A model generated the notes under the pieces. That model was not told the origin of the DNA. It was given only the letters and a program-made list of their open reading frames with translations, and searched no databases. From assembly GCA_039027135.1 (NCBI GenBank), contig JBCCKZ010000001.1:1-41996 (forward strand): 41,996 nucleotides of DNA, given 5' to 3'. Shown piece after piece: positions 1,811 through 36,199 of the stretch. Within the stretch, counting starts at the first letter, position 1, and each line of letters starts with the position of its first letter. Made by a program: the position numbers and the translations under genes. The DNA comes from Planctomycetota bacterium (lineage in GTDB: Bacteria > Planctomycetota > Planctomycetia > Pirellulales > Pirellulaceae).

Positions 1811-2048
1811 GATCGGCTAGCTGGCGTTTTAGACTATTTGAAAACGGGTCTGGCCCTTTGCCAAGCGATTTTGATTGGTTGAAATCGCCTACCATTGGTG
1901 CCGTTTCGAGTTTTCCGACTCATTTCTCTGAGGGTCAGCCCCCTTTTCATACAGTCTCTTCGATGATGAAGCGAGGAACGGGCCGGGAGGAAAGACGCTA
2001 TATTCACGAACCCCTTTTCGAACTTCGCGATTCTCTTCTTAGTACTTC

Positions 2049-2219
2049 ATGGATAAAAAAGCCAAAAAACGACTCGACGTCATCAACAAGAAGCTTCAAA
2101 CGCTACGTCCACGACTCGCGGGTTCCAGGGCACAGGCAGATGATCCCGAAGAGCTCAAGCAGCTGGAAGATGAGATCTCAGCCTTAGAGGCTGAAGCCAA
2201 AGAGCTCAAGGCTTCCTAA
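2049..2219 (+). CDS. Small 56-aa predicted coiled-coil protein, absent from the supplied ORF track
   Basis: ATG 2049 to TAA 2217-2219 reads MDKKAKKRLDVINKKLQTLRPRLAGSRAQADDPEELKQLEDEISALEAEAKELKAS. Two amphipathic helices; ends 5 nt before rhaB. Confidence 0.75.
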   Translation: MDKKAKKRLDVINKKLQTLRPRLAGSRAQADDPEELKQLEDEISALEAEAKELKAS

Positions 2220-2224
2220 GAATC

Positions 2225-3757
2225 GTGAAAGATCTATCCAAGCTCTCAGTACGTATCGCGGTCGACCTTGGTGCCTCAAGTGGTCGACTGATCGCCGGTT
2301 GGCTTCACGAAGGGTGTTTAGAAACCGAGGTCATTCACCGCTTCGAGAATAACCCTGTTCGCGTGGCGGGTTCGCTGCAATGGAACTTGACTGGACTTTG
2401 GTCTGAGATCCTTCGAGGCCTATCGCTGTCGGCGTCCCGGTGCTCTGAAATCGAATCGATTGGCGTCGACTCATGGGGTGTCGATTTCGGATGGATCGAC
2501 TCGTGTGGTCAACTCGCTGGCCCCGTCTATCACTATCGTGACGATCGAACGGCCGGCATGATGGAACATGTGGATCAAACTGTCGGCTTCGGTCGGGTCT
2601 TCGACACGACGGGGATCCAGTTCATGCCAATCAACTCGATCTATCAAATCTGTGGAGCGGTTGCCCGTTCGGATTCGGCTCTTTCGAGCGCTGAATCATT
2701 TTTAATGATCGCAGATTTATTCCATTACTGGCTTTGTGGCATCCGTTCAATAGAAGTAACCAATGCCTCGACAACGCAGCTGCTTGACGCCCAGACGCAG
2801 CAATGGGATACCGAACTAATCAATGCACTCGAGATCCCATCCCAACCTTTCGCTGCCCCAATTGCACCCGCCACACGTTTAGGTCAGATCACCGATGAAG
2901 TCAAAACCGAAACGGGCCTGACTGGCGGCGAGGTGATCGTGCCCGCCACCCATGACACCGCCTCTGCCGTTATTGCAGTTCCTGCGGAGCCCGGCGAGGC
3001 TTCATCCCAACCGAAATGGTGCTACATCAGCAGTGGTACATGGTCATTGATGGGCGTTGAGATTGATAAACCTATCATCAATGAAAAGTCGCGAAGCCTC
3101 AACTTTACGAACGAAGCTGGCATCAACGGAACAACACGTCTGGTGAAAAACATCGGCGGCCTATGGATTTTCCAACAATTACGCCGATCAATGATCCGGC
3201 GTGGCGTTGAACGTGACTGGTCGGCGATGGTTGAGATGGCTTCAAAAGCAGAGCCTTTCTCGGCGATCATTCATCCTGATCATCCTGACTTGATTGCTCC
3301 GTCGGACATGTGGTCAGCGGCGTGCAAGGTAGCTGCATTCAAAGGGCCACCCATCAATCCGGATACGCCCGTTGACGAACAAATGGAAGGGCGAATGTAT
3401 CGCGCCGCACTGGAGGGTTTGGCATTACGCTATCGCGAATGCTTGCAATTGCTTGAGAGCCTCGTTGGCGGGTCGATTGAAACAATCCACATCGTCGGTG
3501 GCGGCTGTGTCAATGAATTGCTTTGTGAAATGACGGCGGATGCCTGCAATCGCAAAGTGGTTGCAGGTCCCGATGAAGCGACATCGCTTGGCAATTTACT
3601 CGTCCAGCTGATCGGAGGAGGGCAGGTCGCGGATCTTTCTGCGGCACGCCAGATCGTTCGCGATTCCATCGAAGTTCGCACCTATCTTCCCAGAGAAGAT
3701 GCCGGAAGGGACGCGGCGGCTTATGCTAATGTCGTACTTCCCGACTTACCTTCGTGA
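2225..3757 (+). CDS. rhaB: Rhamnulokinase (FGGY family; could also act on fuculose)
   Basis: AVDLGASSGR, SIGVDSWGVDFG, HYRDDRT, TGIQFMPINSIYQ, EVTNASTTQL, ATHDTASAV, YISSGTWSLMG, NFTNEAG, IHIVGGG, AGPDEATSLGN. Confidence 0.9.
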   Translation: MKDLSKLSVRIAVDLGASSGRLIAGWLHEGCLETEVIHRFENNPVRVAGSLQWNLTGLWSEILRGLSLSASRCSEIESIGVDSWGVDFGWIDSCGQLAGPVYHYRDDRTAGMMEHVDQTVGFGRVFDTTGIQFMPINSIYQICGAVARSDSALSSAESFLMIADLFHYWLCGIRSIEVTNASTTQLLDAQTQQWDTELINALEIPSQPFAAPIAPATRLGQITDEVKTETGLTGGEVIVPATHDTASAVIAVPAEPGEASSQPKWCYISSGTWSLMGVEIDKPIINEKSRSLNFTNEAGINGTTRLVKNIGGLWIFQQLRRSMIRRGVERDWSAMVEMASKAEPFSAIIHPDHPDLIAPSDMWSAACKVAAFKGPPINPDTPVDEQMEGRMYRAALEGLALRYRECLQLLESLVGGSIETIHIVGGGCVNELLCEMTADACNRKVVAGPDEATSLGNLLVQLIGGGQVADLSAARQIVRDSIEVRTYLPREDAGRDAAAYANVVLPDLPS

Positions 3758-7065: not shown

Positions 7066-10000
7066 ATGAAGAATCATCTTTCATCACGTTCAAGAAAATC
7101 GTTTTTCAAGTCGATCGAGCAACGAAAGTTGCGAATCGAAACGCTCGAAAAACGACATCTTCTGGCGGCGTCCCTTGGGATTGATGAGAGCTTTCTTGAA
7201 TGGGAGTCATACGGCATTGAGAGGTCAATTGTCCCCGGTGAGCTGGTTGTCGCCTTTGAACACAGTGAGTCGATCGAGGGCTTTGCAAGGTTTATGCAAA
7301 CGATCGATTTACCGAACGAGGCATCTTATGAGGCAAGCATCCCCAGTACATTGCTGACTCTGCAGCCTGAGTCTGAATCCAATCTTGTCACCCTCGTGCA
7401 GTTTGAGTTCGACCCGAACGAAGACTTGCAATCTCTCGTGAGTGACTTCGAGCGACTCGGCGAGGTCGCCTGGGCATCGCCAAACTACCAATATAGCGGT
7501 GACATTTTTGATTTCATTCCCAATGACCCAAGCTTTTCAACGCAGTATCACCATACCCTGATGCAAAACGATGTCGCGTGGGACACGACGCTCGGCGACC
7601 CGAGTGTGATCATTGCGGTAACCGATGATGGTGTACAGCTCGACCACCCGGATCTTGCCGCGAATATCTGGGTGAATGATGACCCGATCGATGGGATCGA
7701 CAACGACGGCAACGGCTTCATCGACGATATCAATGGCTGGGATTTCGTGGCCAACGACAATGACCCTAGCCCTAATATTTCCAGCAATGATCACGGAACC
7801 CATGTGGCAGGAATTCTCGCGGGTGTGACCAACAACTCCGTTGGGATCGCGGGAACAGCTGGCGGCGCATCCATCATGCCGATACGGATTGCCGGAAACG
7901 ATGGTGGATTTACTTCCACCATCCTCGCCAACACATTCGCCTACGCGATAGACAATGGCGCTCGCATCGCCAACACCAGCTACAACATCAATGGTTTTGT
8001 TGGCGATCCAACCTTTACGGCAGGCCTTCAATACTACTACGACAATGGTGGGCTGCATTTCAACTCGGCAGGCAACAACAACGAACTCAATCCAGCCAGA
8101 CAAGCCTTTCACCAAACACTCTTGGTGGCCAGCACGACATCGACTGACACCAAAAGCAGCTTCAGCAACTACGGTACGGGCATCGACATCTCGGCTCCCG
8201 GTAGCTCAATTTTTTCCACGGTCACCAATAGCGGGTATGGATTCAAGAGTGGAACGTCGATGTCAGCGCCGAATGCTGCAGGTGCCGCTGCACTCATATG
8301 GTCGGCTAATCCCACCTGGAGCAGGGATCAAGTCGCTGCGCAACTTCTAGCGACGGCTGACTCAATCGAAAGCCTCAACCCGACTTACCAGGGATTACTT
8401 GGCGCTGGACGTGTTAATACAAGCAACTTGTCAGGTCCGCTATCCGCACCAATTGTGTCCAAAGTTGATGGATTGCCCGCCGACGGCTCCTTTATTTTGG
8501 CGGCCGAATCACCGACCGATTTCTCGATTGCGTTCAATCAGATCATGGATCCGGCGTCAGTGAACGATGCGTCGAACTTCAGTCTCGTCGAAGCGGGAAT
8601 CAACGGTATCTTCGGAGACGCTGACGATGTGACACGACCTATCACGCTCGACAGCGACTACATGATCGGCACAAACGAGCTTGATTTCTCGATAGTCGGT
8701 GGACCGTTGTCACCAGGTCGATACGCCTTCGCAGTATCAGCCAATGTGACCAATCCATTCGGCACATCCATTGATGGAGATGGCAACGGTGTTGGAGGAG
8801 ATGCTTTCCTGAGCACGTTCAACGTCATCGTCCCACCACTTGATCCGATCGAACCGCTTGGTTCACTCGCCTATCGCGGTGATTTTTCGGGAAGCGTTTT
8901 GACTGCCGGACAAACGCAACAATACACCGTTGAACTCGATGATGGCCAATCTCTGACAGTCGTTGGTGTTCCAGACAGCACGCTGACGGTCGCGATTTCG
9001 GTGGAGGCTCCCAGCGGTTCGATATCATCGCTAGCGGCGGCTTCGCCTGGTGATGACTTAGTTCTAGGTCCGGTTACCAGCCAGGTCGCGGGGACTTACA
9101 CCATCACGGTCAGTGGCGCGAACTCAACCACTGGAAGCTTTGATCTCCAGGTGCTCGTTAACACTTCGGTCGAATCTGAGACGCATGGGGGCGCATCAAA
9201 TGATACGTTGGCCAATGCTCAATCAATCTCAGCAAGCAATACGACTCTTGGTTTCGGGAACTCAGATCGACTCTCAGTCCTCGGTTCATTTCCAGGCGGT
9301 CCGAGCCAAGAGATATTCAGCGAGGACTTTGAGTCTGGAGTCCTTGGTAATAGTTGGACGACAAGCTCATCGGATCAACGCGGTCAGATTCGTGCCTCGA
9401 ATGAGCAAACGGCTGCATCCGGCACCTTCGCATTACTCATGGACGTGTCAACGAGTGGCGACCCCGCATTGAATGAAGCGATTTGGACGGTCGACCTGAG
9501 TGGTTTGAATGACGTCACACTCGCATTTTCTCATGCCGAGTGGTCCGATGAAACCGACGCTTTGCCCGAGACGTTCACGGGCAGCTTTAACGGCGATGGC
9601 GTGGCGGTCAGTGACGACGGAGTCAATTGGTTCACCGTATTGAGTGCTCCCCAAACAACGAACGGCATCTGGACACAAGAAACCATTGATCTCGTTGCCT
9701 TGGCCAACCAGACAGGCATGACGCTAGGTGCAGGATTTCAAATCAAGTTCCAGCAATACGATAACTTTCCTTTGACCACCGATGGTCGAGGTTATGACGA
9801 CATCCAAATTCTCGCGTCAGTTCCTCAGAACGATTGGTACTCCTTTGACGTTGTTGGCGGCGAAACCAATTCGATAAGCCTCACCAAGCTTTCGGAGGGT
9901 GCAGCCGCTTTAGGCCTTTTCGATAGTTCAGGCAATCAACTTGCCACCTTCAACGAACTGGACACAGGCGAACAACGAATCGACCAATTCGAGGCACCCG

Positions 10001-13000
10001 CCGGCACCTACTTCGTGAATGTTGTTGGTAGCGCAGCCGACTACCACCTGATCATCGCAAGGCAAAGTGATTTTGTCCCAGAGGATTCCGGGCCGAACTC
10101 CGCTTTTGATATTTCACAATCATCAACCGGTGTCTCGTTCGGCAGACTGGGTGAGCTTTCTTCATCAGGCATCGAACCGGACGATTACTCAACCGGCACA
10201 GTGCTTAACAACGTCGACCCGGCAGTCACGCTATCTAGTGATTTAACCGGCGGGAGTATCTTTGCCGCCACAGCTGCATTCAACGCACCGACGGGGAACC
10301 TTGTATTCGCAACCACAGCGACAGGCGCCAATGGATTTTCGGCAACCAACGCTTTTCGAGCGGACTTTACTGATCCGGTAGCCATCGTTTCCATCGATGC
10401 TGGGTCCGATGATTCATCAGACACTTCGCAGCTGCAGGCCTATTCATCAAGTGGGGTCTTACTTGACACAGTCGTTAGTTCACCACTTGCATCGGGCAAC
10501 TCGGAAACGTTAGCGATTACGCGATCTACCGCGGATATCGCCTACGTTTTAGCTTCCGGCGTGGCGGGAGATGTTTCTCCGCTCGATAACTTGCAATACA
10601 GTACTCGTCCTGACGAAGACGTCTTCACCTTGACCGCGGAAGCAGGTGACGCTCTTACCCTGGAGACGCTGACACCGGGAGATGGTCCCCTTGAACCTTT
10701 TAACCTTGTCGACGTGGGAATCGAACTGTTCGATCCAACGGGAACACTTGTTGCCAGTGGAACCAACGCCGGTAACGAAAACATCTCGCATGTAGCCACC
10801 CAGTCCGGACTCTATGAAGTTCGCGCCTATGCACAGCAGAACGAGGGCGACTATGTCTTAAGGGTCACTGGCGCGACGTCTCCGCAACCCGCCTTCAACG
10901 CATCGGCCTTGTCTCCAGCGGATGGTGCGGTACTTGCCACCACGCCCACGTCAGTCCTTCTCGACTTCAACGACAGCGTCTTACTGACTAGCTTGCAAGC
11001 GAGTGACTTCAAACTCAACGGGGTTTCAGCATCGACGGTTGAAACCCTCGATGGTGATAGTGTGGTTGTGGAGTTTCCGTCGATACCCGGCGGTGCAAAC
11101 ACACTGACTATCGATGCAGGTGACATTCTTGATCTGCAGTCGACCCCACTGCAGGCGTTCTCCAGCACGTTCACTGTCGACATCTCACCTCCACAGATCG
11201 TTGGATCGACCGTGCAGGAGGGTGACGTGTTGCCAAATGACGCTGTCTCGTTCTCATTCGACTTCAGTGAGCCAATGAGCGTTGGGCAGTTTGACGAAAG
11301 CGACTTTCGGTTGGTGGGAAATCGATTGGGCGCGATTGCCCCAGACTCATTCAACCTGGTTAACAGCTCATCGGGAGCAACGCTGACAATCACCTATGGA
11401 ATCCTTCCGGAAGACGCCTTCACGTTAACGCTGGATAGCGGTGATGGTGCGTTAGAGGACCTAGCCGGCAATGATCTAGATGGTGAGCCGCTTGCCTTCC
11501 CTCTTCCGCCCAACAGCAGTGGTGATGGGGTCGCCGGAGGTGATTTTTCGCTTAACTTCGAAACGGATATCTCATCCGTTGTTTTGGACGCACCATTGAG
11601 ACAATTGGTCCCTGCGGGCTCACAGGGCTATGACCAGGTTGTCTCGGGGCGTTTCAACGCCATTGGAGAAGTTGATGTTTATCAAATAGATATCGACGAC
11701 AATCAATTGATATCGATCCAGCTTATCACCGATCCATCGGTGACCCCAGCTTTCACCTTAGCTGATTCAAACCAAGTCGTTGCCAACTCACGAGCATCGG
11801 CTGCCGGTGCTTCGGTTCAGTCTTACCGAGTTACCGAGTCAGAGGGCGGAACCTATCAGATCTCTGTATCAGCGGCCGATGCTGGAGATTATGAGCTTCG
11901 AGTGATTCTCAATAGCGACTTTGAAGAGGAAGGTTTTGGTTTCGGCAACAACGATTCTGCCTCTTTCGCGCAGCCGATTGCTTCGATCAACCTTCCACCC
12001 GCCGCCGCCTCAACGATTGCGGATGCTACCGTTTCGGAGACTGCGGGCACAGCTTTGTTGCCCATTTCGCTGTCAAGCGAACCTCAAGGAACCATTTATG
12101 TCGAACTTGATAGCTCAGATGCAAGCGAAGTCGCTGTATTGAGCCCTCGCTTGGCGTTCGACAGCGAGAACTGGGACCAGCCCCAAATGGTGAGCGTCAT
12201 CGGCATCGATGACCTGGCAAGTGATGGCGACCAAATCAGCTTGGTTACCGCGTCAGTTGATCCCGTTCTCGAAAGCGATCAGAACATTAGTCTCACACGT
12301 GGTGAGTTCTCAGTTGCCACTCTGGATAACGAAACCTACTCGCCGCCAGACGATCAAACGGCGACGGTCATCGTGACAGATCCCGTTGGAGGTAGCCAAC
12401 CACACGAGAACCGTCAGCCTTCCCTGGCGATGAACTATATCGTTGCGATCACGGGAGTCTTTCCAAGCAGCTTTGGCCCTATTGAAGACTCAGCCCACAA
12501 TGGTCCTTTCATTGCAGAACAAGCGGAAGCCTCTGAGCCCTTCATTGGTGAGGTCTCTGTCTTTGCCGGCAGCTTCGCGCCAAGAGGCTGGGCATTCGCT
12601 CATGGCCAGCTGCTTCCAATCAACCAGAACGCTGCGTTGTTTTCAATACTCGGAACGACCTATGGTGGTGACGGTCAAACGACGTTTGCACTCCCCGATT
12701 TAAGAGGCCGAAGCGCTATCGGTGCCGGCGATGCCCCAGGACTGACCACGAGATCACCCGGAGACCGAATCGGTGCTTCTGAAGTCACGCTCAACGAAGC
12801 ACAAATCCCGGGACACCTGCATCGACTACAGCCACCTTTCGGAGCGCTCACCACAGATGGAGTTGGAAATGTAGCAACGCACTCCAATATGATGCCATCG
12901 TTGGGCTTGAGCTACATTATCGCAACAGAAGGCGTCTTTCCGAGTCTAAGTACGCCGGTCGCCGACATGGAGTCCAATGAAGCTTTCGACCCATTGATCG

Positions 13001-16000
13001 GTGAAGTCCGATTGTTCGCCGGCAACTTTGCGCCAACGGGCTGGACCTTCGCAGACGGCCGCATCCTTCCAATCTCACCGAACTCAAACTTGTTTTCACT
13101 GATTGGTACGATTTATGGCGGTGACGGTACGACAAACTTCCGAGTGCCCGATTTTAGAGGTCGATTAGCCATCGGACAGGGAACAGGTCCGGGTCTATCT
13201 ACAAGAGTCCTTGGATCGCACAGCGGATCAGAAGTCAGCACGTTGTTTTCTTCTACACTGCCATCCCATTCCCACAACGTCCCGACTCTCAACACGGAAA
13301 CAATCACCGTCGGGGGATCCGGCTCTCATAATAATGTTCAACCGCAACTGGCGATTAACTACGCCATCGCTCTGACAGGCACATTCCCCAGCCCAACGGC
13401 CCCTGAATCAGCTGATCCGTTTCTGGGTGAGATCATGATGGTTGGTTTCAACTTCGCGCCTCGAGGTTGGGCGTTGGCCAACGGTCAACTCTTGCCCATC
13501 TCGCAGAATCAATCGCTGTTTTCACTACTGGGCACTCAGTACGGAGGTGATGGCGTAACCACGTTTGCGCTGCCAGACCTTAGAGGACGAGCCATCGTTG
13601 GCGCAGGGCAGGGCCCCGGGCTTCCCGATTATTCGGTCGGTCAAGTCTTTGGGAGTGAGGAGGTATCTCTAACTATCGCGGAACTCCCAAATCACTCACA
13701 CACCATTCAGATTGCGGAGATCGATCCGTCTATTCGTTCGGTTGTAGGTTCGCTGGACGCATCGGGTTCCGACGAGGATTGGTATAGCTTTGCGATTGAC
13801 ACTGACGATGTCGTTACGGTTTCTGTAACGGGCCAAGAGTCGAACGATTTCGTCGTCGACCTCTTTGACCAATCGGGAGGCCAACAGCTCGCGGCAGGAG
13901 TGCCGGCAGCGAATCTGAGCTCAGTAATCAATGACTTCGTTAACTTAGGTGAATTCCACCAGTTCACCGTTCGCGTGACAGGATCAGAGCCAGGTGAGTA
14001 TCTGTTGGTCGTTACCGTCAATGCTGCATTTGACACCGAGGCCAACAACGAAGATGCCGATGCCCAGCCGCTAGGGACATCGCAATCAGCTTTTGGCCAT
14101 GTGCGTTCACCGTCGGCAACAACACCATCATTGCCCGAGGCCGAACGCGGTGGAGGAATTGACCTAAATGGACTTAGTGACAACCGAGACTCTACGAATG
14201 TGCCGGTGGCTTACGAAACGCAAGACGCCAGCGTGCCACTTCCTTTTGATCCCTATCAGAGCTTCCAAGTAAGCACTCCCGAACCGATCACGGTCAGTTT
14301 GCCAGAGGACTCGGAGGCATCGGCCCTCTCCGGACCGATACCGGTGCTATCTCAGTTTGCGGGTCCCGATTCAACCGGCTTCATTCCCCCGGACCCCATC
14401 ATCGCGGCAGGCCCCGAACAGGTCGTAACGATGGTCAATACGGCCATTGGAATTTATGACAAATCAACGGGAGCAGAACTCTTCTTTCAGAATCTCAACG
14501 GACCCAGCGGCTTCTTCGGATCCGTCGGCGCAACAACCACCGTATTTGATCCATGGATTTTCTACGACCATGAAACGGATCGGTTCATGGCGGTTGCAAT
14601 CGACATTGAAAGCTCATCCGTTAGCAATGTCTTCTTAGCAATTTCGACGGATTCGACCCCCACCAACGGCGATGACTGGCACAAATACAAGATTGACTTT
14701 TCGCACGACCCGACGGGCACCGGTTTAGGTACTGGCATCCATTTCCCCGACTACGAGAAGATGGGCGTCAACAGCGATGCGATTTTCATTTCGGGGAATT
14801 ACTTTCCCATTGAAGCAGGCACGGGAGTCTACGCTGGCATCACCGCGATTGAGAAAGCTCCGCTGCTTTCTGGTGGACCAGCCAACATCGTTTTCGAAGA
14901 GCACTTCAGCGGATTTAGCGTCTTCCCGATGCAGCAGTATGGCAGTACGACTACGCAGTACTTTGCAGAGTCAACGGGAAGCGGCTTTCAACGCATCCAT
15001 GCCATCGACAACGTGTTAGGTGGATCACCGACGAGACAAACCTTCAACCTTAACGTTCCCGCGTACAACGAGCCCGTGAACGTGCCTCAACTTGGTGGTG
15101 GAACGTCCGCTGATTCGATCAGTTCGCGTGTCATGACGGGCATTTATCGCGATGGATCAATGTGGTTCGCTCATGGCGCGACCGATCCGGCGATAGGTGA
15201 TGGCGAATCGGTTGCACGATGGTATGAGGTCAACACCAATGGTTTCGCCGCTGGCGGTGGCCTACCCACTCTCGTGCAAGCTGGCAATGTCGATCCTGGT
15301 CCAGGAGTCCATGCCTGGATGCCAGCCATCAATGTTGATGCCGAAGGCAATATGGGTATTGGTTTCGCTGTCGGTGGTCCCAACCAGTTCTATGGCGCCG
15401 GATTTACCGGGCGGCTTGCCGACGATCCCCTCGGTGACACAGTCCTCCCCGTCACCGAGTATGCGATAGGACAAGCTAACTACGTTGGCTTAGATGGCTC
15501 CGGTCGCAATCGCTGGGGCGACTACACCGGCTTGGCTCTCGATCCAACCGACGATGCGACATTCTGGGTCTATAACGAATACGCATCGACGGGCAATCGC
15601 TGGGCTACTGAGATTGCCTCCTTCCAGCTGGAGTCACCCAACGATGATGATTGGTACGAATTCGAGGCAACCGTTGGTGATTCGCTGACCATTACCACCG
15701 AAACACCTGGCGGTGGCCCGTACCTGATTGAAAATCAGCTTGATCCGACGATTGAGCTATACAATTCGGATGGTGTTCAGGTTGCATCCGCAGATTCTGA
15801 TGGCAACGAAACACTGAACTTCAATGTGACGGTATCCGGCATTTACCGCGTTCGAGTATTCGCGGCTGCAGGCAGTGAAGGTGAATACTTCGTTTCCGTT
15901 GCTGGAGCAAGCGGCACCGATTCAAGCCCCAGGGTAATCGATAGCGACCCAGATAATGGAATCAGCCTGGGTGCCTTCCCATCAACCATCACTCTCGACT

Positions 16001-19000
16001 TCAGCGAGCCGATTCTCACTTCATCGGTCGATCTCCAGGATCTCCTGATTGGCGGTCTGCCGGCAACATCGGTTGCGCAGATTGATGGCGACACCTTCGA
16101 GTTCACGATCAACCCCGCTGCCAACGTGGGTGACGGGAGCTACTCCGTCGTCATGGCTTCGGGTGCCGTCCTCGATCTGCAGGGTTCTGCAGTAGACGCT
16201 TATTCTGGGACGTTCACTCTCGATACAACCGGTCCAAGGATCACTTCAACGACTTGGAACGGAGGCCCGCTGACCACTCTGGCACCAGGCCCACTTGTGT
16301 TCGAGGCCTTTCTCGACGAGGACCTCTTTCAACTTGGAAGCGCTCGAAGAGGTCCATTTGCACCGGGTCCCGATGACATTGAATTGATTGACCAAGACAG
16401 CGGAGATCTCTTCACACCAAGTTTGGTTGATTACGATTCCACCCTGGACAAGATAACGATTGAATTTGGAGATCTGCCCGAGGCACGATACACGCTAACC
16501 CTCAAATCGGGTGATGGTGCCATCGAGGACGAAGTTGGCAATGATCTTGATGGTGAGCCCATAGGCACCGGCCTCGATGGAACGATCACAGGTGATGGCA
16601 CGCCCGGCGGAGACTATTCCATCGACTTTACGGTCGACTTTGGGACGAGACCTGTTCAGCCCTTCGAAAGGCTTGAACCGCTAGGAAGCCTGATGTCGAT
16701 CAGCGCATTGAACGAGGGCATCATTGACGCCGACGGCGACACGGACACGTTCAGCTTTACGGCGGCTGCGGGCCAGGTCATTAGCGTGATCGCGGAGGAC
16801 ACGAGTGACAGCGGTGGCTCAATTGGCGTTGAGCTAGTTGGCTTGGCTCCTGGAGCAAGTGGCGTCGAGAGAGTCATCTTGTCACCAACGGTCATTCCCT
16901 TGGATGGCAACTATGAGCTACGAGTGACGGCAAACCAAAGACTCCCCTACTCAATCTCCATACTCAATGGATTCCTATCCGAATTGGAAGCCGTCGGTGG
17001 AGACTCTTCTGACAATAATCCTTTGCAGATCAATGATTCATTTGTTCCGCTAGGCGATGGTCGTGCTCGCTTCTCCATCGTCGGTCATTCCAAGTCATTG
17101 GGCGTTGCTTCGCAGCCGGTGCTATTCGGTATCGACGCGGCTAACAATCAGATCGTTGAGTTGGATACTTCGGACGGATCGATAAGGCGATCCTTTACCG
17201 TTCCTAACGGTTTCGCCGGTGCCCTGTCAGGATTGTCCGGTGCCGAAAACGGATCGACACTGATTTTTCAAGACAGCTCTTTCCCGACAAATCTCTACCG
17301 AGTGGATCCAACGAACGGCAATGTCCTCAGTGTTGAACAAATGCTTGACATTGGAAGCGGTGGCCGAGGGGGGCTCTCCTTTGAGGATTCAGCTATCTTT
17401 GCCATCGATGTCAATGGCCCCATCGATCGTCAAGACGGTTTCAGCGGAAGCGTATCGGATCACGTGGGACTGGTATCACCGGACTTCCCTGGTGCATTGG
17501 GTGGCGATGATAACGGTCGTCATTTCTTCGTCGACGCTGGGACGATTGTTGAGTTCGATGCAAATGTCGCCAACACGATTATCAACTCTTTTTCGGCGCC
17601 TCAAGGATCAACGATCGGTGGCCTGGCTTTCGACGGGACTGTCCTATACGCGTCCGACTGGAATACCGACAGCGTGTACTCTTTGGATCCCAACACAGGA
17701 GCGATCCTTAGTCAGTTACCAGTTGGAAGAGACTTGTCAGGTCTCGGCGTGGTATCGCGATCACCCACAAGTACTGGTGATGCGATTATCAACGGGAGCT
17801 TCGAAACCGGCGACTTTAACGGTTGGACGACGGCCGTTTCCGGGTCGCCCTTTCGACCTTGGGCAGTTTCAGGTGCCGGGCAGGGCGGTGGCTTCAGCCT
17901 TTCACTTACAGACCCACAAGATGGCGACTTCGTTGCTTGGAATGGGTTCGACGGGTCAGGTCCATTGGACTTCACAATGAACCAGGTTGTTACGGTACCC
18001 AACGCGGGAGAGCTAAGCTTCCAGTATCGGGCTCAGTGGGACTTTACCCTGGGCTCGAACGCCAACATCGGCCGGGACTTCTTTGTCGAGATACTCGACC
18101 CTAACTCCAACGCATTGCTGAGCACGGTATTCAGCTTCAACACTGGTACTCAAAGTGTGAATCCAACCGGAGACACCGGCTGGCAAACCGAGATCATCGA
18201 CTTGAGTGCGTTCTCTGGACAAACCGTCGCTCTTCAGTTCCGCGAGTTCATCCCCGAAACCCTTACGGGACCGGGACAGATCGAGTTTGATGCGATCTCA
18301 TTGACCTCAGCAGCCCCCTTGGTGCCGGATGTCGATCAATACGATCTGGACCTGACTGGCCAATCCGGACAATCAATCGACGTTGTACTAGCCGGTCATA
18401 ACGGGGCGGATTTCCGGGGCGAAACACTCGAGCTCATCGCTCCCGATGGTGTGACGGTGCTTGCAGCGGGAACCATTCCGATTGGCCCCAATGAAAACTA
18501 CGATCTAAGTATCCGTGATTTCACCGTTCCCGCAGACGGAGTCTATTCGATTCGATTCTCGTCACTCGTTTCAGGCGAGTATGGACTGTCCGTAACAACT
18601 TCGATGGTCTTTGATTCCGAGCCAAACAACTCGGACATCTTTCCGCTGCGTAGCCTGGATACGCATGATGCGGCACTTGGCTATCTTGAAGCACCTGGCA
18701 CCACGGTTGGTGATTTAATTGACCTCTATGAGTTCAATGCCCAAGCGGGCGACGTGTTCACTTTTTCAACTGAAACACCTTTCGATTCAACTGCGTCTTC
18801 AAGTCCCAACAACTTGGACGTGAGTCTTACAGTCCTTGAGCCTATCGCCTCGTTTGTCGTTGCCTCAGACTCTGATTCGGCGCCAGATGGCAAGAATGCA
18901 ATTGTGACGTTCACCGCGCGTTCCAGCGGCACCTACTCCCTAAGAGTCGAAGCCGAACAGGGCTTGGGTGAATATGTCGTTAAGAAGTCCTCTCCTCAGC

Positions 19001-19806
19001 TGATTAGCATCACCGATGTGATTGTTTCATCCTCATCTTGGGACAGTAGCTTTATCGATATCGTGGACGGTGGTGGTCCCGGTGCAGGCAACGGCCTTGG
19101 CTTGTCACTGCCAGGTTCTAACCAGACGCGGAACCTGCCCTGGCTAACGGGAATCGACACTTTGTTCATTGAGTTTGATGACGACGTCTCAAACGGGTTC
19201 TCAAAGACAAATCTATCGCTAATTGGCAACGAGTCCGACCACCTTGCCGAGGCGCTGATTTCATTTGATTCCAACACGAACATTGGCACGATTAGCCTGG
19301 CGACTCCGGTGACACGCGATGCACTGATCTTGACTGTCTTCGATTCCATTGCGAGTTCGTTTGATGGCGAATGGGTAGACTCGGTAAGCCTATTGTCCGG
19401 AAACGGCACACCGGGCGGTCGATTTGATTTTCGCATCGATGTTTTGGCCGGTGATGTCAACGACGATAACGCTGTCAGCTTGACCGGCGATGTCTTGCCG
19501 ACGTATCAGCAGAACACGCTGCTGCCAACCACTCTGAACGAGAGCTACTTTGATGTAAGTGCTGATGGTGCTGTCAGCTTGACCGGAGATGTCCTCGGTA
19601 TTTATGGAAAGAATACCGACCTACTTCCAGACCCACCTCAACCACCTTCGCAACCGTTGGCCCCGCAAAGCTTTGAATCGATCGATCAGGTCATGGAGAC
19701 TTATGGTCTTCCAGACGAAGATGATCAGGAGCTAGCGTTGATGGTGTCAGATGAATCTCAAGTCAGTGCTCGCATTGGTCAGCAAGAATCAGAGGAGATG
19801 CGCTGA
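7066..19806 (+). CDS. Giant (4246 aa) secreted S8 serine protease with Ig-like, PPC-like, Calx-beta-like, three phage tail-collar, beta-propeller and C-terminal dockerin-like domains
   Basis: Planctomycete extracellular motif LRIETLEKRHLLAA. Intact S8 triad: VAVTDDG-type Asp (IAVTDDGV, 7624), HGTHVAG (His 7792), GTSMSAP (Ser 8257). Repeated DWYSF/DWYEF PPC-like domains and DLDGE...GDGxxGGD Ig-like domains. Three P(F/L)(I/L)GE...FAPxGW...YGGDGxTxFxxPDxRGR collar units. Duplicated DVxxDxAVSLTGDVL. Confidence 0.9.
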   Translation: MKNHLSSRSRKSFFKSIEQRKLRIETLEKRHLLAASLGIDESFLEWESYGIERSIVPGELVVAFEHSESIEGFARFMQTIDLPNEASYEASIPSTLLTLQPESESNLVTLVQFEFDPNEDLQSLVSDFERLGEVAWASPNYQYSGDIFDFIPNDPSFSTQYHHTLMQNDVAWDTTLGDPSVIIAVTDDGVQLDHPDLAANIWVNDDPIDGIDNDGNGFIDDINGWDFVANDNDPSPNISSNDHGTHVAGILAGVTNNSVGIAGTAGGASIMPIRIAGNDGGFTSTILANTFAYAIDNGARIANTSYNINGFVGDPTFTAGLQYYYDNGGLHFNSAGNNNELNPARQAFHQTLLVASTTSTDTKSSFSNYGTGIDISAPGSSIFSTVTNSGYGFKSGTSMSAPNAAGAAALIWSANPTWSRDQVAAQLLATADSIESLNPTYQGLLGAGRVNTSNLSGPLSAPIVSKVDGLPADGSFILAAESPTDFSIAFNQIMDPASVNDASNFSLVEAGINGIFGDADDVTRPITLDSDYMIGTNELDFSIVGGPLSPGRYAFAVSANVTNPFGTSIDGDGNGVGGDAFLSTFNVIVPPLDPIEPLGSLAYRGDFSGSVLTAGQTQQYTVELDDGQSLTVVGVPDSTLTVAISVEAPSGSISSLAAASPGDDLVLGPVTSQVAGTYTITVSGANSTTGSFDLQVLVNTSVESETHGGASNDTLANAQSISASNTTLGFGNSDRLSVLGSFPGGPSQEIFSEDFESGVLGNSWTTSSSDQRGQIRASNEQTAASGTFALLMDVSTSGDPALNEAIWTVDLSGLNDVTLAFSHAEWSDETDALPETFTGSFNGDGVAVSDDGVNWFTVLSAPQTTNGIWTQETIDLVALANQTGMTLGAGFQIKFQQYDNFPLTTDGRGYDDIQILASVPQNDWYSFDVVGGETNSISLTKLSEGAAALGLFDSSGNQLATFNELDTGEQRIDQFEAPAGTYFVNVVGSAADYHLIIARQSDFVPEDSGPNSAFDISQSSTGVSFGRLGELSSSGIEPDDYSTGTVLNNVDPAVTLSSDLTGGSIFAATAAFNAPTGNLVFATTATGANGFSATNAFRADFTDPVAIVSIDAGSDDSSDTSQLQAYSSSGVLLDTVVSSPLASGNSETLAITRSTADIAYVLASGVAGDVSPLDNLQYSTRPDEDVFTLTAEAGDALTLETLTPGDGPLEPFNLVDVGIELFDPTGTLVASGTNAGNENISHVATQSGLYEVRAYAQQNEGDYVLRVTGATSPQPAFNASALSPADGAVLATTPTSVLLDFNDSVLLTSLQASDFKLNGVSASTVETLDGDSVVVEFPSIPGGANTLTIDAGDILDLQSTPLQAFSSTFTVDISPPQIVGSTVQEGDVLPNDAVSFSFDFSEPMSVGQFDESDFRLVGNRLGAIAPDSFNLVNSSSGATLTITYGILPEDAFTLTLDSGDGALEDLAGNDLDGEPLAFPLPPNSSGDGVAGGDFSLNFETDISSVVLDAPLRQLVPAGSQGYDQVVSGRFNAIGEVDVYQIDIDDNQLISIQLITDPSVTPAFTLADSNQVVANSRASAAGASVQSYRVTESEGGTYQISVSAADAGDYELRVILNSDFEEEGFGFGNNDSASFAQPIASINLPPAAASTIADATVSETAGTALLPISLSSEPQGTIYVELDSSDASEVAVLSPRLAFDSENWDQPQMVSVIGIDDLASDGDQISLVTASVDPVLESDQNISLTRGEFSVATLDNETYSPPDDQTATVIVTDPVGGSQPHENRQPSLAMNYIVAITGVFPSSFGPIEDSAHNGPFIAEQAEASEPFIGEVSVFAGSFAPRGWAFAHGQLLPINQNAALFSILGTTYGGDGQTTFALPDLRGRSAIGAGDAPGLTTRSPGDRIGASEVTLNEAQIPGHLHRLQPPFGALTTDGVGNVATHSNMMPSLGLSYIIATEGVFPSLSTPVADMESNEAFDPLIGEVRLFAGNFAPTGWTFADGRILPISPNSNLFSLIGTIYGGDGTTNFRVPDFRGRLAIGQGTGPGLSTRVLGSHSGSEVSTLFSSTLPSHSHNVPTLNTETITVGGSGSHNNVQPQLAINYAIALTGTFPSPTAPESADPFLGEIMMVGFNFAPRGWALANGQLLPISQNQSLFSLLGTQYGGDGVTTFALPDLRGRAIVGAGQGPGLPDYSVGQVFGSEEVSLTIAELPNHSHTIQIAEIDPSIRSVVGSLDASGSDEDWYSFAIDTDDVVTVSVTGQESNDFVVDLFDQSGGQQLAAGVPAANLSSVINDFVNLGEFHQFTVRVTGSEPGEYLLVVTVNAAFDTEANNEDADAQPLGTSQSAFGHVRSPSATTPSLPEAERGGGIDLNGLSDNRDSTNVPVAYETQDASVPLPFDPYQSFQVSTPEPITVSLPEDSEASALSGPIPVLSQFAGPDSTGFIPPDPIIAAGPEQVVTMVNTAIGIYDKSTGAELFFQNLNGPSGFFGSVGATTTVFDPWIFYDHETDRFMAVAIDIESSSVSNVFLAISTDSTPTNGDDWHKYKIDFSHDPTGTGLGTGIHFPDYEKMGVNSDAIFISGNYFPIEAGTGVYAGITAIEKAPLLSGGPANIVFEEHFSGFSVFPMQQYGSTTTQYFAESTGSGFQRIHAIDNVLGGSPTRQTFNLNVPAYNEPVNVPQLGGGTSADSISSRVMTGIYRDGSMWFAHGATDPAIGDGESVARWYEVNTNGFAAGGGLPTLVQAGNVDPGPGVHAWMPAINVDAEGNMGIGFAVGGPNQFYGAGFTGRLADDPLGDTVLPVTEYAIGQANYVGLDGSGRNRWGDYTGLALDPTDDATFWVYNEYASTGNRWATEIASFQLESPNDDDWYEFEATVGDSLTITTETPGGGPYLIENQLDPTIELYNSDGVQVASADSDGNETLNFNVTVSGIYRVRVFAAAGSEGEYFVSVAGASGTDSSPRVIDSDPDNGISLGAFPSTITLDFSEPILTSSVDLQDLLIGGLPATSVAQIDGDTFEFTINPAANVGDGSYSVVMASGAVLDLQGSAVDAYSGTFTLDTTGPRITSTTWNGGPLTTLAPGPLVFEAFLDEDLFQLGSARRGPFAPGPDDIELIDQDSGDLFTPSLVDYDSTLDKITIEFGDLPEARYTLTLKSGDGAIEDEVGNDLDGEPIGTGLDGTITGDGTPGGDYSIDFTVDFGTRPVQPFERLEPLGSLMSISALNEGIIDADGDTDTFSFTAAAGQVISVIAEDTSDSGGSIGVELVGLAPGASGVERVILSPTVIPLDGNYELRVTANQRLPYSISILNGFLSELEAVGGDSSDNNPLQINDSFVPLGDGRARFSIVGHSKSLGVASQPVLFGIDAANNQIVELDTSDGSIRRSFTVPNGFAGALSGLSGAENGSTLIFQDSSFPTNLYRVDPTNGNVLSVEQMLDIGSGGRGGLSFEDSAIFAIDVNGPIDRQDGFSGSVSDHVGLVSPDFPGALGGDDNGRHFFVDAGTIVEFDANVANTIINSFSAPQGSTIGGLAFDGTVLYASDWNTDSVYSLDPNTGAILSQLPVGRDLSGLGVVSRSPTSTGDAIINGSFETGDFNGWTTAVSGSPFRPWAVSGAGQGGGFSLSLTDPQDGDFVAWNGFDGSGPLDFTMNQVVTVPNAGELSFQYRAQWDFTLGSNANIGRDFFVEILDPNSNALLSTVFSFNTGTQSVNPTGDTGWQTEIIDLSAFSGQTVALQFREFIPETLTGPGQIEFDAISLTSAAPLVPDVDQYDLDLTGQSGQSIDVVLAGHNGADFRGETLELIAPDGVTVLAAGTIPIGPNENYDLSIRDFTVPADGVYSIRFSSLVSGEYGLSVTTSMVFDSEPNNSDIFPLRSLDTHDAALGYLEAPGTTVGDLIDLYEFNAQAGDVFTFSTETPFDSTASSSPNNLDVSLTVLEPIASFVVASDSDSAPDGKNAIVTFTARSSGTYSLRVEAEQGLGEYVVKKSSPQLISITDVIVSSSSWDSSFIDIVDGGGPGAGNGLGLSLPGSNQTRNLPWLTGIDTLFIEFDDDVSNGFSKTNLSLIGNESDHLAEALISFDSNTNIGTISLATPVTRDALILTVFDSIASSFDGEWVDSVSLLSGNGTPGGRFDFRIDVLAGDVNDDNAVSLTGDVLPTYQQNTLLPTTLNESYFDVSADGAVSLTGDVLGIYGKNTDLLPDPPQPPSQPLAPQSFESIDQVMETYGLPDEDDQELALMVSDESQVSARIGQQESEEMR
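12388..13701 (+). repeat. Tandem array of three phage tail-collar (MdpB / microcystin-dependent protein-like) units inside the giant CDS, circularly permuted
   Basis: Unit N-halves start at 12535, 12988 and 13414. C-terminal segments (HxNxxPxLxxxYxIAxxGxFPS) end at 12468, 12945 and 13392. The first C-segment precedes unit 1, and unit 3 stops after NHSH at 13701. Confidence 0.85.
19471..19593 (+). repeat. 24-nt direct repeat (23/24 identical) encoding the duplicated segment of a dockerin-like domain
   Basis: gctgtcagcttgaccggcgatgtc (19471-19494) and gctgtcagcttgaccggagatgtc (19570-19593). Protein: GDVNDDNAVSLTGDVL and FDVSADGAVSLTGDVL. Confidence 0.8.
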
Positions 19807-22353: not shown

Positions 22354-24129
22354 ATGCTTCGTAGCTTCGTTTGCCTGATCGCATCTTTCTTTGTTTTTGA
22401 AATTGTCAGTGCGGAGAAAGTCATTGAGTTTCGCGATCCCGCCAGCATGCGTGCGGTAGGGTCTCAGTCAGCCACCTCAAAGATCGTGAATGACGAGTTC
22501 GGTGATTCCGCCTTTCGCGTCGATATCGAAAAGGCGGGTGAGGTTCCCTGGGCAGTTGTCATGCATACGGGAACGAACACAAAGCCACTCTTGAAAGGAG
22601 ATCGCTTACTTTGCGAAATCTCCGCCCGGGTCACCGGGGAGCGAACGGAGTACGGCAATCTTCGAATCGCAACGGAATCGGCCGTCAAACATAAACAAGG
22701 TTACGCGGGCGATCAGATAGAGCTGACAACCAAGAAGAAGACCTATCGCTTTACGGTCACTTGTCCAGGTGACTATGACGCCGGCGAATACCGAATCGCA
22801 TTGCACCTCGCTCAAATTCCTCAAGTGGTCGATATTTATGCGGTATCTATGGAGCGGTACGATGCCGATACACCAACAAGCCAACTAAATATCTCCCCTA
22901 TTTCTTGGCGAGGACAGGAAGAGGATGCGCCGTGGCGAATTCAAGCTCAGAAAAGAATTGAAGAGTTTCGAAAGCAAACGCTAAAAATCATCATTACCGA
23001 TGACCTTGGAAACCCCGTCCCTGATGCCAAACTAAACATCCAGCAACGAAAACATGCTTGGCGTTTCGGGATGTTTGTAGGACCAACTCTGTTGGCTGAA
23101 AATGAAGACGGACGCAAGTACCGCGAACTCATCAAGAGTCGTTACAACTACCTTGCTTTACCTGCCTACCTCGCCAACTGGGGATGGCTCAACGAGGAAT
23201 CACGTTCTCGATACTTTCGGTTCGCTGATTGGGCTCAAGAGAACAAGCTGCCAGCCCGTGGACACTTGCTAGTGTATCCAGGCTGGGCCGTTACACCGCC
23301 GGAGTGGTTTAATATTCCCAAACCAGATCTGAGAAAGAATCTCGAGCAGCATATTCCAACGGCGATCGATGCCTTGAGAGTGCGAGGCGTAACGGAATGG
23401 GATGTGACCAACGAGCTCAGAATGAATGAAGCTTTCATGGATGAAATCGGTGGCGTTCAAGTCGCAGCCGACTGGTTCAAAGCTGCCCGCGAGCGTTTAC
23501 CTTCGGGTGATCTTTATATCAACGAGACATTCATCCTTTCCAATGGAGGAAAAACGGAGACCGAACAAGCCAAGTACGAGGAACACATCGAACAACTTCT
23601 GGCGGCGGGAGCACCAATCGACGGTCTCGGGATGCAGGGGCACTTCGGTTCACAACTCACACCACCGGAAAAACTTATCGAAACGCTGAATCGCTTCGCC
23701 AGATATGGCAAGAAGATTCAGATAACAGAATTCGATATCGATACCGATGACAAGCGAGCCCAGGCTCTCTACATGCGAGACTTCTACACCGCTTGTTTCT
23801 CGCATCCCTCAGTCGTAGGCGTCGTTCGCTGGGGTTTTTGGGAAGGCGAAATGTGGAAACCGCGTGGGCACGCGTTCACCAAAGAATGGCAAACCACACT
23901 CGTATCGGAAGCCTATGAAGACCTGGTTCTGGGCAAATGGTGGACAAACCTCGAAGGCCAAACAGATGCCAATGGCATTTGGAAAGACCGTGTTTTCCGA
24001 GGCGTTCAAAACATCAGTGTCGATGTCAAAGGCTATCGGTATAACCGCGATCTGGAAGTCGATTCCGATGCGGTGACTCATGAGGTCATTTTGCCAATCC
24101 GGACTTCGACCAATACAAAAAGCGGCTGA
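22354..24129 (+). CDS. Secreted glycoside hydrolase family 10 (endo-1,4-beta-xylanase-like) with an N-terminal CBM-like domain
   Basis: Signal peptide; RGHLLVY, EWDVTNE (acid/base), LYINE, IDGLGMQGHF, IQITEFDI (nucleophile), WGFWE. Confidence 0.85.
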   Translation: MLRSFVCLIASFFVFEIVSAEKVIEFRDPASMRAVGSQSATSKIVNDEFGDSAFRVDIEKAGEVPWAVVMHTGTNTKPLLKGDRLLCEISARVTGERTEYGNLRIATESAVKHKQGYAGDQIELTTKKKTYRFTVTCPGDYDAGEYRIALHLAQIPQVVDIYAVSMERYDADTPTSQLNISPISWRGQEEDAPWRIQAQKRIEEFRKQTLKIIITDDLGNPVPDAKLNIQQRKHAWRFGMFVGPTLLAENEDGRKYRELIKSRYNYLALPAYLANWGWLNEESRSRYFRFADWAQENKLPARGHLLVYPGWAVTPPEWFNIPKPDLRKNLEQHIPTAIDALRVRGVTEWDVTNELRMNEAFMDEIGGVQVAADWFKAARERLPSGDLYINETFILSNGGKTETEQAKYEEHIEQLLAAGAPIDGLGMQGHFGSQLTPPEKLIETLNRFARYGKKIQITEFDIDTDDKRAQALYMRDFYTACFSHPSVVGVVRWGFWEGEMWKPRGHAFTKEWQTTLVSEAYEDLVLGKWWTNLEGQTDANGIWKDRVFRGVQNISVDVKGYRYNRDLEVDSDAVTHEVILPIRTSTNTKSG

Positions 24130-24157
24130 AGAAGTCGCCGGACATCTATCGTGCCCC

Positions 24158-25201
24158 ATGGTACAAACCAACGAGATGGACGACTTGATTCGCTGGACCG
24201 AGAAGGGTTTCTATTGCGAAGCAGGTGACTTTTTCATCGACCCACACACCGGTGTTGATCGCGCCGTCGTTTCCCACGCCCACACGGACCACGCACATTG
24301 GGGGTGCAAGCGATATTTGGCAGCATCGCCGAGTGAGCACTTGCTGAGAATGCGAGTCAACGCTGACGCTGAATTCACATTCGCCGGCTATGGCGAGACC
24401 ACGAAAATCCGCGGAGTGAATATTTCTTTTCACCCTGCCGGGCATATTTTGGGAAGCGCTCAAATAAGGCTTGAGCACGCTGGACGTGTGGTGGTAGTCA
24501 CCGGTGATTATAAGTTGGGCGATGACCCAACTTGCGAATCTTGGCAACCTATCCCATGCCATCTACTCGTCACCGAATCAACCTTTGGTTTACCGATTTA
24601 TCGTTGGAAGCCACAGATTGAAATCTATAACGAGATCAACCATTGGTGGCGAGCCAATCGAGATGCGGGGAAGTGTTCCATCATTTACGGATACGCCGTC
24701 GGAAAGTCTCAACGAATTCTCGCCGGACTAGACCCGAGCATAGGCCCCATCTACACACATGGGGCGGTTGAGAAAGGTGTCGATGCTTATCGGCGAAGTG
24801 GTGTTGCCATGCCCGAAACGACCTATGTCGCAACGTTGCCAAACAAACATGACTTTGCCGGATCCATAGTCGTTGCCGTTCCCTCTGCTCATGGAACGTC
24901 TTGGATACGTCGATTCGGTAAGGCAAGCACTGCGATGGTTAGCGGTTGGATGATGGTGCGTGGTTCGCGTCGCCGTCGATCTGTCGATCGAGGATTCGTG
25001 CTTAGCGATCATGTCGATTGGCCATCATTGCTGAAGGCCATCGATGAGTCAGATCCTGCAATGGTTTGGGTTACCCACGGCTATACCGCAGCGGTGGCTC
25101 GCTATCTGAATGAGACTGGAAGACCAGCAGCGCCAGTTGATTCTGCAATGCGAACGGAAGAGGATAGCGAAGAACGACTTGATGCGATGGAGGATCTGTG
25201 A
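24158..25201 (+). CDS. Ligase-associated DNA damage response exonuclease (metallo-beta-lactamase fold)
   Basis: GDFFIDP, SHAHTDHA, HPAGHILGSAQIR, TGDYK, TESTFGLPIYRW, SGWM, LSDHVDWP, VTHG. Start at 24158 or 24176. Overlaps the ligase start (GTGA). Confidence 0.9.
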   Translation: MVQTNEMDDLIRWTEKGFYCEAGDFFIDPHTGVDRAVVSHAHTDHAHWGCKRYLAASPSEHLLRMRVNADAEFTFAGYGETTKIRGVNISFHPAGHILGSAQIRLEHAGRVVVVTGDYKLGDDPTCESWQPIPCHLLVTESTFGLPIYRWKPQIEIYNEINHWWRANRDAGKCSIIYGYAVGKSQRILAGLDPSIGPIYTHGAVEKGVDAYRRSGVAMPETTYVATLPNKHDFAGSIVVAVPSAHGTSWIRRFGKASTAMVSGWMMVRGSRRRRSVDRGFVLSDHVDWPSLLKAIDESDPAMVWVTHGYTAAVARYLNETGRPAAPVDSAMRTEEDSEERLDAMEDL

Positions 25202-26796: not shown

Positions 26797-26833
26797 TAAC
26801 CGATGACCTCTGCGAGGTATTGGCGAGTAGGTA

Positions 26834-26839
26834 TACAAT
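26834..26839 (+). promoter_or_regulatory. Putative sigma70-type -10 box of a leaderless promoter for the UDG gene
   Basis: TACAAT ends 6 nt (cggcga) before ATG 26846, with no Shine-Dalgarno sequence in between. Confidence 0.5.
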
Positions 26840-26845
26840 CGGCGA

Positions 26846-29664: not shown

Positions 29665-29844
29665 TCACGACGCCAACGCCGTTCGTCGCTGGCAAAATCG
29701 ATTCAATCGATAAACACGCCTCATCTGTTTAGATCGGTCCCCAAGAGGAATCGGCGACAAGCACTTCAGGCATCGACTACGGTTCGCCAGCATCGATGAC
29801 CTAGGTTTCGAATGATGTACCATTCCGAGGCCATTGTTAGACCG

Positions 29845-30255
29845 ATGTACCATCGCAAACAACTTAATTTGAACTCAACGCCACGAGGCACGGCCGTCAC
29901 CGAACTAGCCATTTGTCTCCCACTGCTTGTTTTGATCACACTTGGGACCGTGGAAGCCTGTTCGATGCTGTATCTTCAGCAGAAACTTGAGACAGCTGCC
30001 TATGAAGGGTCTCGAGTCGGATGCGTCCCAGATGCAACTGCCGCGAACGTACGATACCAGTGCGAGACGCTGCTTGATGCCCAATCGGTCAACGACTACG
30101 TGATCACGTTGAATCCGTCTGACCCCGCCAGCTTGCAACAAGGCGAGTTCCTTCGAGTCAGCATTGAAGCTCCCTGTAATACCAACTCAGTCATCGGTGG
30201 GTGGTTTTACATGGGCAGACTTCTTTCTGGCGACGCCTCACTAAGTAAGGAATAG
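29845..30255 (+). CDS. tadE: TadE-like pseudopilin
   Basis: Prepilin motif PRG/TAVTELAICLPLLVLITLGTVE, then AAYEGSRVG. Alternative start at 29812. Confidence 0.85.
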   Translation: MYHRKQLNLNSTPRGTAVTELAICLPLLVLITLGTVEACSMLYLQQKLETAAYEGSRVGCVPDATAANVRYQCETLLDAQSVNDYVITLNPSDPASLQQGEFLRVSIEAPCNTNSVIGGWFYMGRLLSGDASLSKE

Positions 30256-30259
30256 ACTG

Positions 30260-31399: not shown

Positions 31400-31413
31400 A
31401 TAAGCCAAACCGC

Positions 31414-32034: not shown

Positions 32035-32297
32035 ATCAAATTCCAGAGTGAGTTACACGGCGTGGCCGGCCGGCAAACGAGTAAGGATCCAAAGCTGCCA
32101 GTTCAGTTTCGCAATTCTTAGGCCAGCGTCTGCAGCGAACAGCCAAAGTTTTACGCGGGCAATTGCTTGATTTGACGGATCAAGTCCGACATGTTGGTCG
32201 TTTTCGGACTGGTTGTGGTATTCTCTACGGGAGGCTTTTTGAAGGTCTCTAAGAGTGTCTTTGTGTCGTCGCAACAATCCGATTCTGGGCCGTCCTC

Positions 32298-34147: not shown

Positions 34148-34172
34148 CCTTCAAGTTTGAACAAACTTGTTG

Positions 34173-36198: not shown

Positions 36199-36199
36199 A

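Follow-up and report, generated by a model that had tools for sequence, protein, structure and literature searches.

The 41,996-nucleotide stretch of DNA analyzed here (the window; positions 1 to 41,996 of contig JBCCKZ010000001.1, assembly GCA_039027135.1), from a Planctomycetota bacterium of the family Pirellulaceae, carries on its forward strand an open reading frame (ORF) at 7066–19806 that encodes a planctomycete extracellular multidomain protein of 4246 amino acids (aa), comprising an S8 peptidase domain, PPC and Ig-like repeats and a triplet of Collar units. A first-pass annotation described this triplet as a circularly permuted single-chain trimer of phage tail-collar domains at 12388–13701, in the order C0-[N1-C1]-[N2-C2]-N3. 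Related units also occur as stand-alone genes named MdpB-like (COG4675), a name that is also used as a JGI label. Two hidden Markov models (HMMs) were trained on 16 of these genes from genomes of the same family, N spanning the collar to the HxH motif and C the terminal segment. The resulting hits coincide exactly with the proposed order, and all six segments fall within the single ORF, unlike the stand-alone cassette, in which three separate genes each encode an N-C unit.

Read along the forward strand, an entry strand (12361–12387) leads into the permuted terminal segment C0 (12388–12468; aa 1775–1801). Unit N1 (12535–12822; aa 1824–1919) comprises collar, neck and HxH motif (H1917, H1919), and C1 (12865–12945; aa 1934–1960) lies behind a distal loop of 14 aa. 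N2 (12988–13275; aa 1975–2070; H2068, H2070) has the same composition and is followed, behind a distal loop of 12 aa, by C2 (13312–13392; aa 2083–2109). N3 (13414–13701; aa 2117–2212; H2210, H2212), again with collar and neck, has no C segment after it and is succeeded by an exit strand to the host chain (13702–13725). All three units keep the HxH motif, as had been claimed, and each C segment holds one further histidine (His1780, His1939 and His2088). The Pfam Collar family (PF07484) matches three stretches, corresponding to N1, N2 and N3, with 253.7 bits in total and 88–102 bits each against a cut-off of 24. The units are 53–59% identical to one another and 60–66% identical to the best stand-alone units, whose distal loops measure 43–50 aa; in the window protein, the host chain occupies the third loop position. 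NCBIfam holds no model for the module, the ESM Atlas returned Collar clusters only, and a sequence search of the PDB matched T4 gp12 alone (E of about 7e-4). No fourth C or N segment was found elsewhere in the genome assembly, which is 83% complete.

The assembly of the region was checked against sequencing runs. A Logan contig of run X1 covers 11489–15000 with two letter differences and no joints, although the window may itself derive from X1, which would then not be independent of it. Run X2, from the same study, covers 12164–12588, including the C0-N1 junction, and 12867–13216, including C1-N2, while the N3 half is not covered. Together with the homologues described below, the sequence data indicate that the permuted triplet is neither a misassembly nor a one-off.

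The whole module was modeled with AlphaFold2 (138 sequences) as one body, with a mean predicted local distance difference test (pLDDT) of 93.2, a predicted template modeling score (pTM) of 0.90, C0 blocks at 98, and dips only in the C-to-N linkers. When N1-C1 was modeled alone (70 sequences), these values were 78.1 and 0.59, and the neck was lost, residues 61–120 of neck and needle scoring 58–72. The predicted single unit adopts the collar fold with a returning terminal strand, like the C-terminal domain of T4 gp12 (1OCY; VIA Z 9.4, root-mean-square deviation (rmsd) 3.1 over 95 aligned residues, range 336–527; Foldseek E 5e-4, probability 1.00) and the tip of gp37 (2XGF; Z 8.7, rmsd 8.1), and also matches a cyanophage fibre (Z 8.6). 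For the whole-module model, Foldseek found no PDB match at E up to 0.001, and VIA gave a Z of 2–4 at most.

Whether C0 belongs to this body was addressed by covariation and by two-chain prediction. Mutual information with average product correction was computed over nine C-N blocks of 1936 pairs each, from 305 sequences of C-N-C-N-C-N (CNCNCN) order (effective number, Neff, 211). Five pairs chosen from C1-N1 and C2-N2, with C0 left out of the choice, ranked 1, 2, 23, 4 and 278 in C0-N3, with a mean z of 4.57 against 1.32 for the best of 40 row shuffles; the same pairs gave 1.43 in C0-N1 and 1.73 in C0-N2. The top C0-N3 pair is a small-large swap, serine occurring with phenylalanine, tyrosine, leucine or valine, or tyrosine or phenylalanine with glycine. 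A second set of five pairs, chosen from C1-N2 and C2-N3, ranked 4–22 in C0-N1 (mean z 4.04; shuffles at most 1.16) and averaged close to zero in C0-N2 and C0-N3. In the two-chain prediction, C0 against the rest of the module scored 0.91, with 0.00 for the best of three controls, at least 97% agreement in contacts between runs and a partner pLDDT of at least 85; at the mark for this score, 116 of 157 solved pairs pass against 2 of 215 mismatched ones, figures that are only roughly valid with the alignment used here. The best predicted contacts join C0 residues 21–24 to N3 residues 410–415 and 426–430, and C0 residues 26–27 to N1 residues 65–66, 77–79 and 114.

The predicted contact residues are the covarying residues, so that ring closure holds, each collar sheet being completed by the preceding C segment. 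The earlier proposal that C0 completes N3 is supported with one refinement: the first half of C0 is predicted to pair with the N3 neck and its last strand to join the N1 collar sheet, so that C0 is shared between the two units. On covariation and two independent predictors, each C(i) would pair with the neck of N(i), while its last strand would enter the collar sheet of the next unit, N(i+1); C0 would close the ring through its pairing with the N3 neck and its strand in the N1 collar. The models support collars built from C(i-1) and N(i), and a description of the module as three permuted C-N collars linked by short needle loops is equally valid. A single-chain pseudo-trimer of exactly three units, as first suggested, is thus what the whole-module model, the loss of the neck in the isolated unit and the covariation point to. 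Prediction and covariation likewise bear out the suggestion that the host chain enters and leaves at the variable distal loop, i.e. at the needle end: in the prediction, the entry strand (pLDDT 94) lies alongside both the needle end of N3 and the exit strand (predicted strand 448–451), with an interface formed by partner residues 1–38 and module residues 437–453.

The same arrangement recurs in many other proteins. Three homologue searches yielded 409, 4411 and 2271 (E up to 1e-30) matches, from which the best 120, 120 and 150 were taken, giving 354 distinct proteins. Among these listed matches, 304 have the CNCNCN order (110 of 120, 113 of 120 and 81 of 114 new ones in the three lists, using a C profile that had been refined from these matches); with the C profile trained on stand-alone genes, the order is found in 79 of 120 and 112 of 120 proteins of the first two lists. 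Unpermuted triple fusions (NCNCNC) make up a further 17. The number of N units per listed protein is three in 340, six in five, nine in one, two in six, four in one and eleven in one. The query is biased towards proteins with at least three units, yet proteins with four or five units would score well and are nearly absent. In seven proteins, P0006, P0012, P0013, P0048, P0251, P0257 and P0243, six, nine or eleven units are present, mostly multiples of three. The domains joined to the module in the listed homologues include PEP-CTERM, dockerin-like, RTX, LamG, FG-GAP and cadherin. Among 80 GTDB loci, 58 consist of three adjacent genes and 10 of single CNCNCN frames, the latter from Planctomycetota, Verrucomicrobia, Polyangia, Acidobacteriota, and Alpha- and Gammaproteobacteria, while the order was found in none of 78 viral loci. 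One viral contig (L139) encodes four N-C units in one frame of 1511 aa.

Internal loops of the permuted forms have a median of 12 aa. Of the 304 permuted triplets, 262 retain the full set of three HxH motifs; 37 keep none, most of these with distal loops of 0–4 aa, which indicates that the collar can be retained without the needle. In 38 of the 304 (P0004, P0010, P0017 and the frame L038:4217-9016, among others), the C2-N3 linker contains, at the collar face, a matrixin-like HExxH domain some 190 aa long. Alphaproteobacterial RTX-repeat proteins from Pseudahrensia and Asticcacaulis (P0031, P0073, P0085, P0103 and P0121) carry permuted triplets with neither HxH motifs nor needle loops, and in P0096, P0105, P0107 and P0114 a needle-less collar triplet is joined to a Hint_2 domain and a glycosyltransferase, according to precomputed Pfam matches.

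In the window protein, the module sits in a host architecture that is itself recognizable. A planctomycete extracellular N-terminal motif (PF07595, 7120–7173, aa 19–36) matches at the Pfam cut-off with 25.5 bits, and the subtilase S8 domain (PF00082, 7603–8364, aa 180–433) matches with 155 bits. Its Asp, His and Ser motifs at 185, 242 and 396 place the domain in S8 by sequence, and the residues D187, H243 and S398, all intact, are presumably the catalytic triad. A PPC-like repeat (11671–11874; E 5e-5, under the Pfam cut-off) precedes the insertion, and a second one (13771–14013) follows, the lead-in of the repeat being interrupted by the insertion. Ahead of the triplet lies a beta-rich domain of about 120 aa (12001–12360) with no Pfam match, which resembles Calx-beta. 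The insertion site spans 20 aa in the relative P0366 and 594 aa here, and the host relatives P0358–P0370 have no collar units, which supports a graft of the triplet together with the 120-aa domain and agrees with the grafting proposed in the first-pass annotation. A separate protein, P0357, combines an S8 domain with the same permuted triplet, a similar domain before C0 and the downstream domains seen here (best local match 56%, query 1771–3512). The host gene is patchy in distribution: no Collar match was found in 44 congeners, and the downstream part of the gene was not found in 36.

Further along the same ORF, a domain of about 495 aa (14161–15645) with no Pfam match is 45–56% conserved in several giant planctomycete proteins and weakly present in three genomes of the same order. 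Outside the host gene, Tad pilus-type genes (TadE-like, VWA/Tad, two T2SSF and T2SSE) lie on both strands at 29812–37507 around a GNAT and a glycosyltransferase gene, and genes for an ATP-dependent DNA ligase and a uracil-DNA glycosylase adjoin an unannotated ORF of 373 aa at 24080–27808. No phage families were found among the 25 window ORFs scanned.

The stand-alone genes provide the natural point of comparison. COG4675 is listed in soil metaproteomes in PMC5579227, and the literature searched contained no published function for the three-gene cassette. In 189 of 204 stand-alone genes, a methionine lies at most 4 aa from the collar, and a cysteine kept in 98% of them is lost in the fused forms. 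Of 66 gene-triplet loci, 50 have a GNAT gene and 43 a DUF6916 gene nearby, versus 2 and 0, respectively, of 17 fused loci; among loci with 2 kb on both sides, the counts are 42 and 35 of 51 versus 2 and 0 of 10. No DUF6916-like match was found in the window's genome (83% complete), and the GNAT gene nearest to the window triplet, a weak match, lies 12 kb downstream, not adjacent to it. Six loci (L036, L037, L090, L103, L109 and L112) hold pairs of collar genes with no GNAT and may have another stoichiometry or a third gene elsewhere.

The relationships among units were examined by nearest neighbors and motif counts, average-linkage clustering of the stand-alone genes having given no three classes. 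For 192 of the 204 stand-alone triplet genes, the nearest relative lies in another locus and not among the two neighbors, a pattern expected of ancient subunits that cannot replace one another. In the dereplicated set, gene position is shared by 46 of 96 nearest neighbors. Fused units share position with their nearest neighbor in 427 of 630 cases and form no universal classes. In a poorly resolved tree of 123 columns, the nearest relatives of the window units are of mixed position, and the fused positions do not map onto gene classes; the permuted form may have come from a fused gene triplet, from tandem duplication in which the ends were lost, or from one permuted C-N unit that was triplicated. 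Cross-gene covariation in stand-alone triplets covers only 68 loci (Neff 37).

Known fibre systems share some of these features and depart from them in others. According to PMC3004832, gp12 binds zinc through His445 and His447 on the trimer axis and requires chaperones for folding; the three HxH motifs of the window module would be placed for a similar axial metal site. Unlike gp12 and gp37, which are homotrimers of separate chains on the virion, the module is one permuted chain in a cellular protein, and the long receptor-binding head of those proteins is reduced to the 12–14-aa loops. PMC12724248 describes three consecutive collar proteins of the virophage DSLV2 that co-purify as a heterotrimer and bind Synechococcus cells. 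This precedent and the nearest-relative pattern of the stand-alone genes lend indirect support to the earlier suggestion that bacterial gene triplets may form heterotrimers. Like these proteins, the module combines three non-identical collar units, the trimer being predicted here and co-purified there, whereas the DSLV2 units come from three separate viral genes, keep the normal order and have their proposed binding patch on the variable head, and the permuted chain is attached through its head end. The unpermuted N-C-N-C-N-C fusions likewise carry three units per chain, many of them behind a signal-like N-terminus, but keep the normal order.

The architectures of the homologues bear on which face of the module is exposed. 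Among 191 small homologues, 100 have nothing besides a hydrophobic head, the module and a PEP-CTERM-like tail (a regular-expression count), and the small homologues in which a PEP-like motif lies 1–14 aa past the third HxH number 109. All 17 unpermuted triple fusions have their triplet at or near the C-terminus (tail of at most 10 aa in 16), and 15 of the 17 keep loops of at least 42 aa; this position and the mostly long loops fit permutation as a route to adding an anchor or embedding the trimer. The frames L039:7750-9540 and L041:9537-11194 are unpermuted triple fusions with very short, histidine-less needles after an unrelated N-terminal domain, the L041 copy being split over two frames. 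Collar residues are highly conserved, and the sequences suggest that the collar rather than the needle tip is probably the working face.

We favor the reading that this predicted pseudo-threefold knob is an outward-facing binding module by which the protease here, and the cell in related proteins, would be tethered to a surface ligand. With both chain ends exiting at the needle end, the anchor or host would replace the variable receptor-binding tip, and the conserved collar would point outwards. By analogy to T4 gp12, the six histidines may staple the axis with one ion of the Zn/Fe type, a structural role that could be dropped in some lineages. Permutation would allow export as one chain with a C-terminal anchor, or insertion within a larger protein, and the permuted trimer would depend neither on partner subunits nor on helpers such as the GNAT and DUF6916 proteins that go with the three-gene cassette. 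The most likely ligand class would be a conserved cell-surface or matrix glycan, e.g. lipopolysaccharide or exopolysaccharide, by analogy to gp12 and the virophage trimer.

Several points weigh against this interpretation. In PMC12724248, the proposed binding patch of the virophage trimer is the variable head and not the collar. The homologue lists hold the top scores for a three-unit query, which disfavors one- and two-unit proteins, and the whole-module and single-unit AlphaFold runs rest on different alignments. Halves of one chain tend to pass the two-chain test, and the gp12 and gp37 trimers are solved, so that the pass may partly reflect likeness to them. In the third class of C-N blocks, no consistent pairs emerged except the promiscuous C17-N9, yet its pairs, driven by that one, reach z of 2.7–2.8 in two C0 blocks, so that the background is not zero. 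The fused loci leave less flanking room for helpers, and among the 17 counted, five frames are truncated or split and a sixth has a C segment that escaped detection. Finally, the sole evidence for export of the host protein is the planctomycete motif at the Pfam cut-off.

The alternative that survives best, although we consider it unlikely, is that the collar is a plug docking into a protein socket, on a giant adhesin, an S-layer or another structure, the permuted form hanging cargo there in place of the variable tip. Gene triplets lie beside an ORF of at least 800 aa in 46 of the 51 loci with enough flank (stop-to-stop frames, some perhaps spurious) and beside cadherin or Ig proteins in the scanned loci, and proteins of these kinds also carry the fused module; the conservation of the collar would be expected with a fixed partner, and the AlphaFold3 prediction of collar binding to capsid given in PMC12724248 can be cited in the same sense. 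Against such a plug stand the 100 small, cell-anchored fused proteins, which carry no cargo, and the lack of a conserved partner gene beside the fused loci. A chiefly metal-binding or stabilizing module with no specific macromolecular ligand, acting as a rigid metal-stapled spacer or a surface metal sponge, appears less probable again: the retention of three HxH motifs in most permuted triplets and the further histidine in each C segment of the window copy would suit it, but the 37 triplets with no HxH have kept the collar, the ion is buried in gp12, and a 440-aa module would be costly for one or two ions.

Harder still to sustain is a protease-specific role, in which the module targets, activates or inhibits the joined S8 or metalloprotease domain. 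The S8 domains of the window protein (P0001) and P0357 and the matrixin-like inserts speak for it, whereas most partners are non-proteolytic and the host relatives P0359–P0364 lack the module; targeting of the protease as the module's specific role, which the first-pass annotation had considered, is thus not borne out, most small homologues having no protease. Trimerization between chains, a decaying prophage fibre remnant or a misassembly is very improbable, the patchiness of the gene among congeners being outweighed by the intact frame, the contiguous contig, the 304 homologues of the same order, the covariation closing the ring within one chain, and the absence of phage genes among the scanned ORFs and of the order from the viral loci.

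The preferred reading of an outward-facing surface-binding knob can be extended beyond this protein. It is conceivable, though we hold it with less than even confidence, that many bacterial phyla have inverted the phage fibre tip, using a permuted, single-chain, chaperone-free collar trimer as a general surface grip whose collar face binds one conserved ligand while an anchor or cargo replaces the variable tip. If true, this would define a large undescribed adhesin family and provide a Rosetta stone for the unexplained MdpB-GNAT-DUF6916 cassette; the products of its three genes would then assemble into that same ring. The module family itself is real, widespread and, by the models, structurally well supported; no account of a permuted or single-chain collar triplet was found in the literature searched, most subscription journals and supplements lying outside its scope. 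The module represents a clean natural circular permutation, by which a viral homotrimer of intertwined chains would have become a portable domain whose two ends lie on the same side. It suggests a structural rule for a very common unexplained protein family, namely that collars act in threes, be they encoded by three genes or joined in an unpermuted or a permuted fusion. Cultured hosts include Adhaeretor mobilis, Lacipirellula limnantheis, Pseudahrensia aquimaris and Asticcacaulis, and expression of the single-chain form takes only one gene, which makes the ligand question for MdpB-like proteins directly testable.

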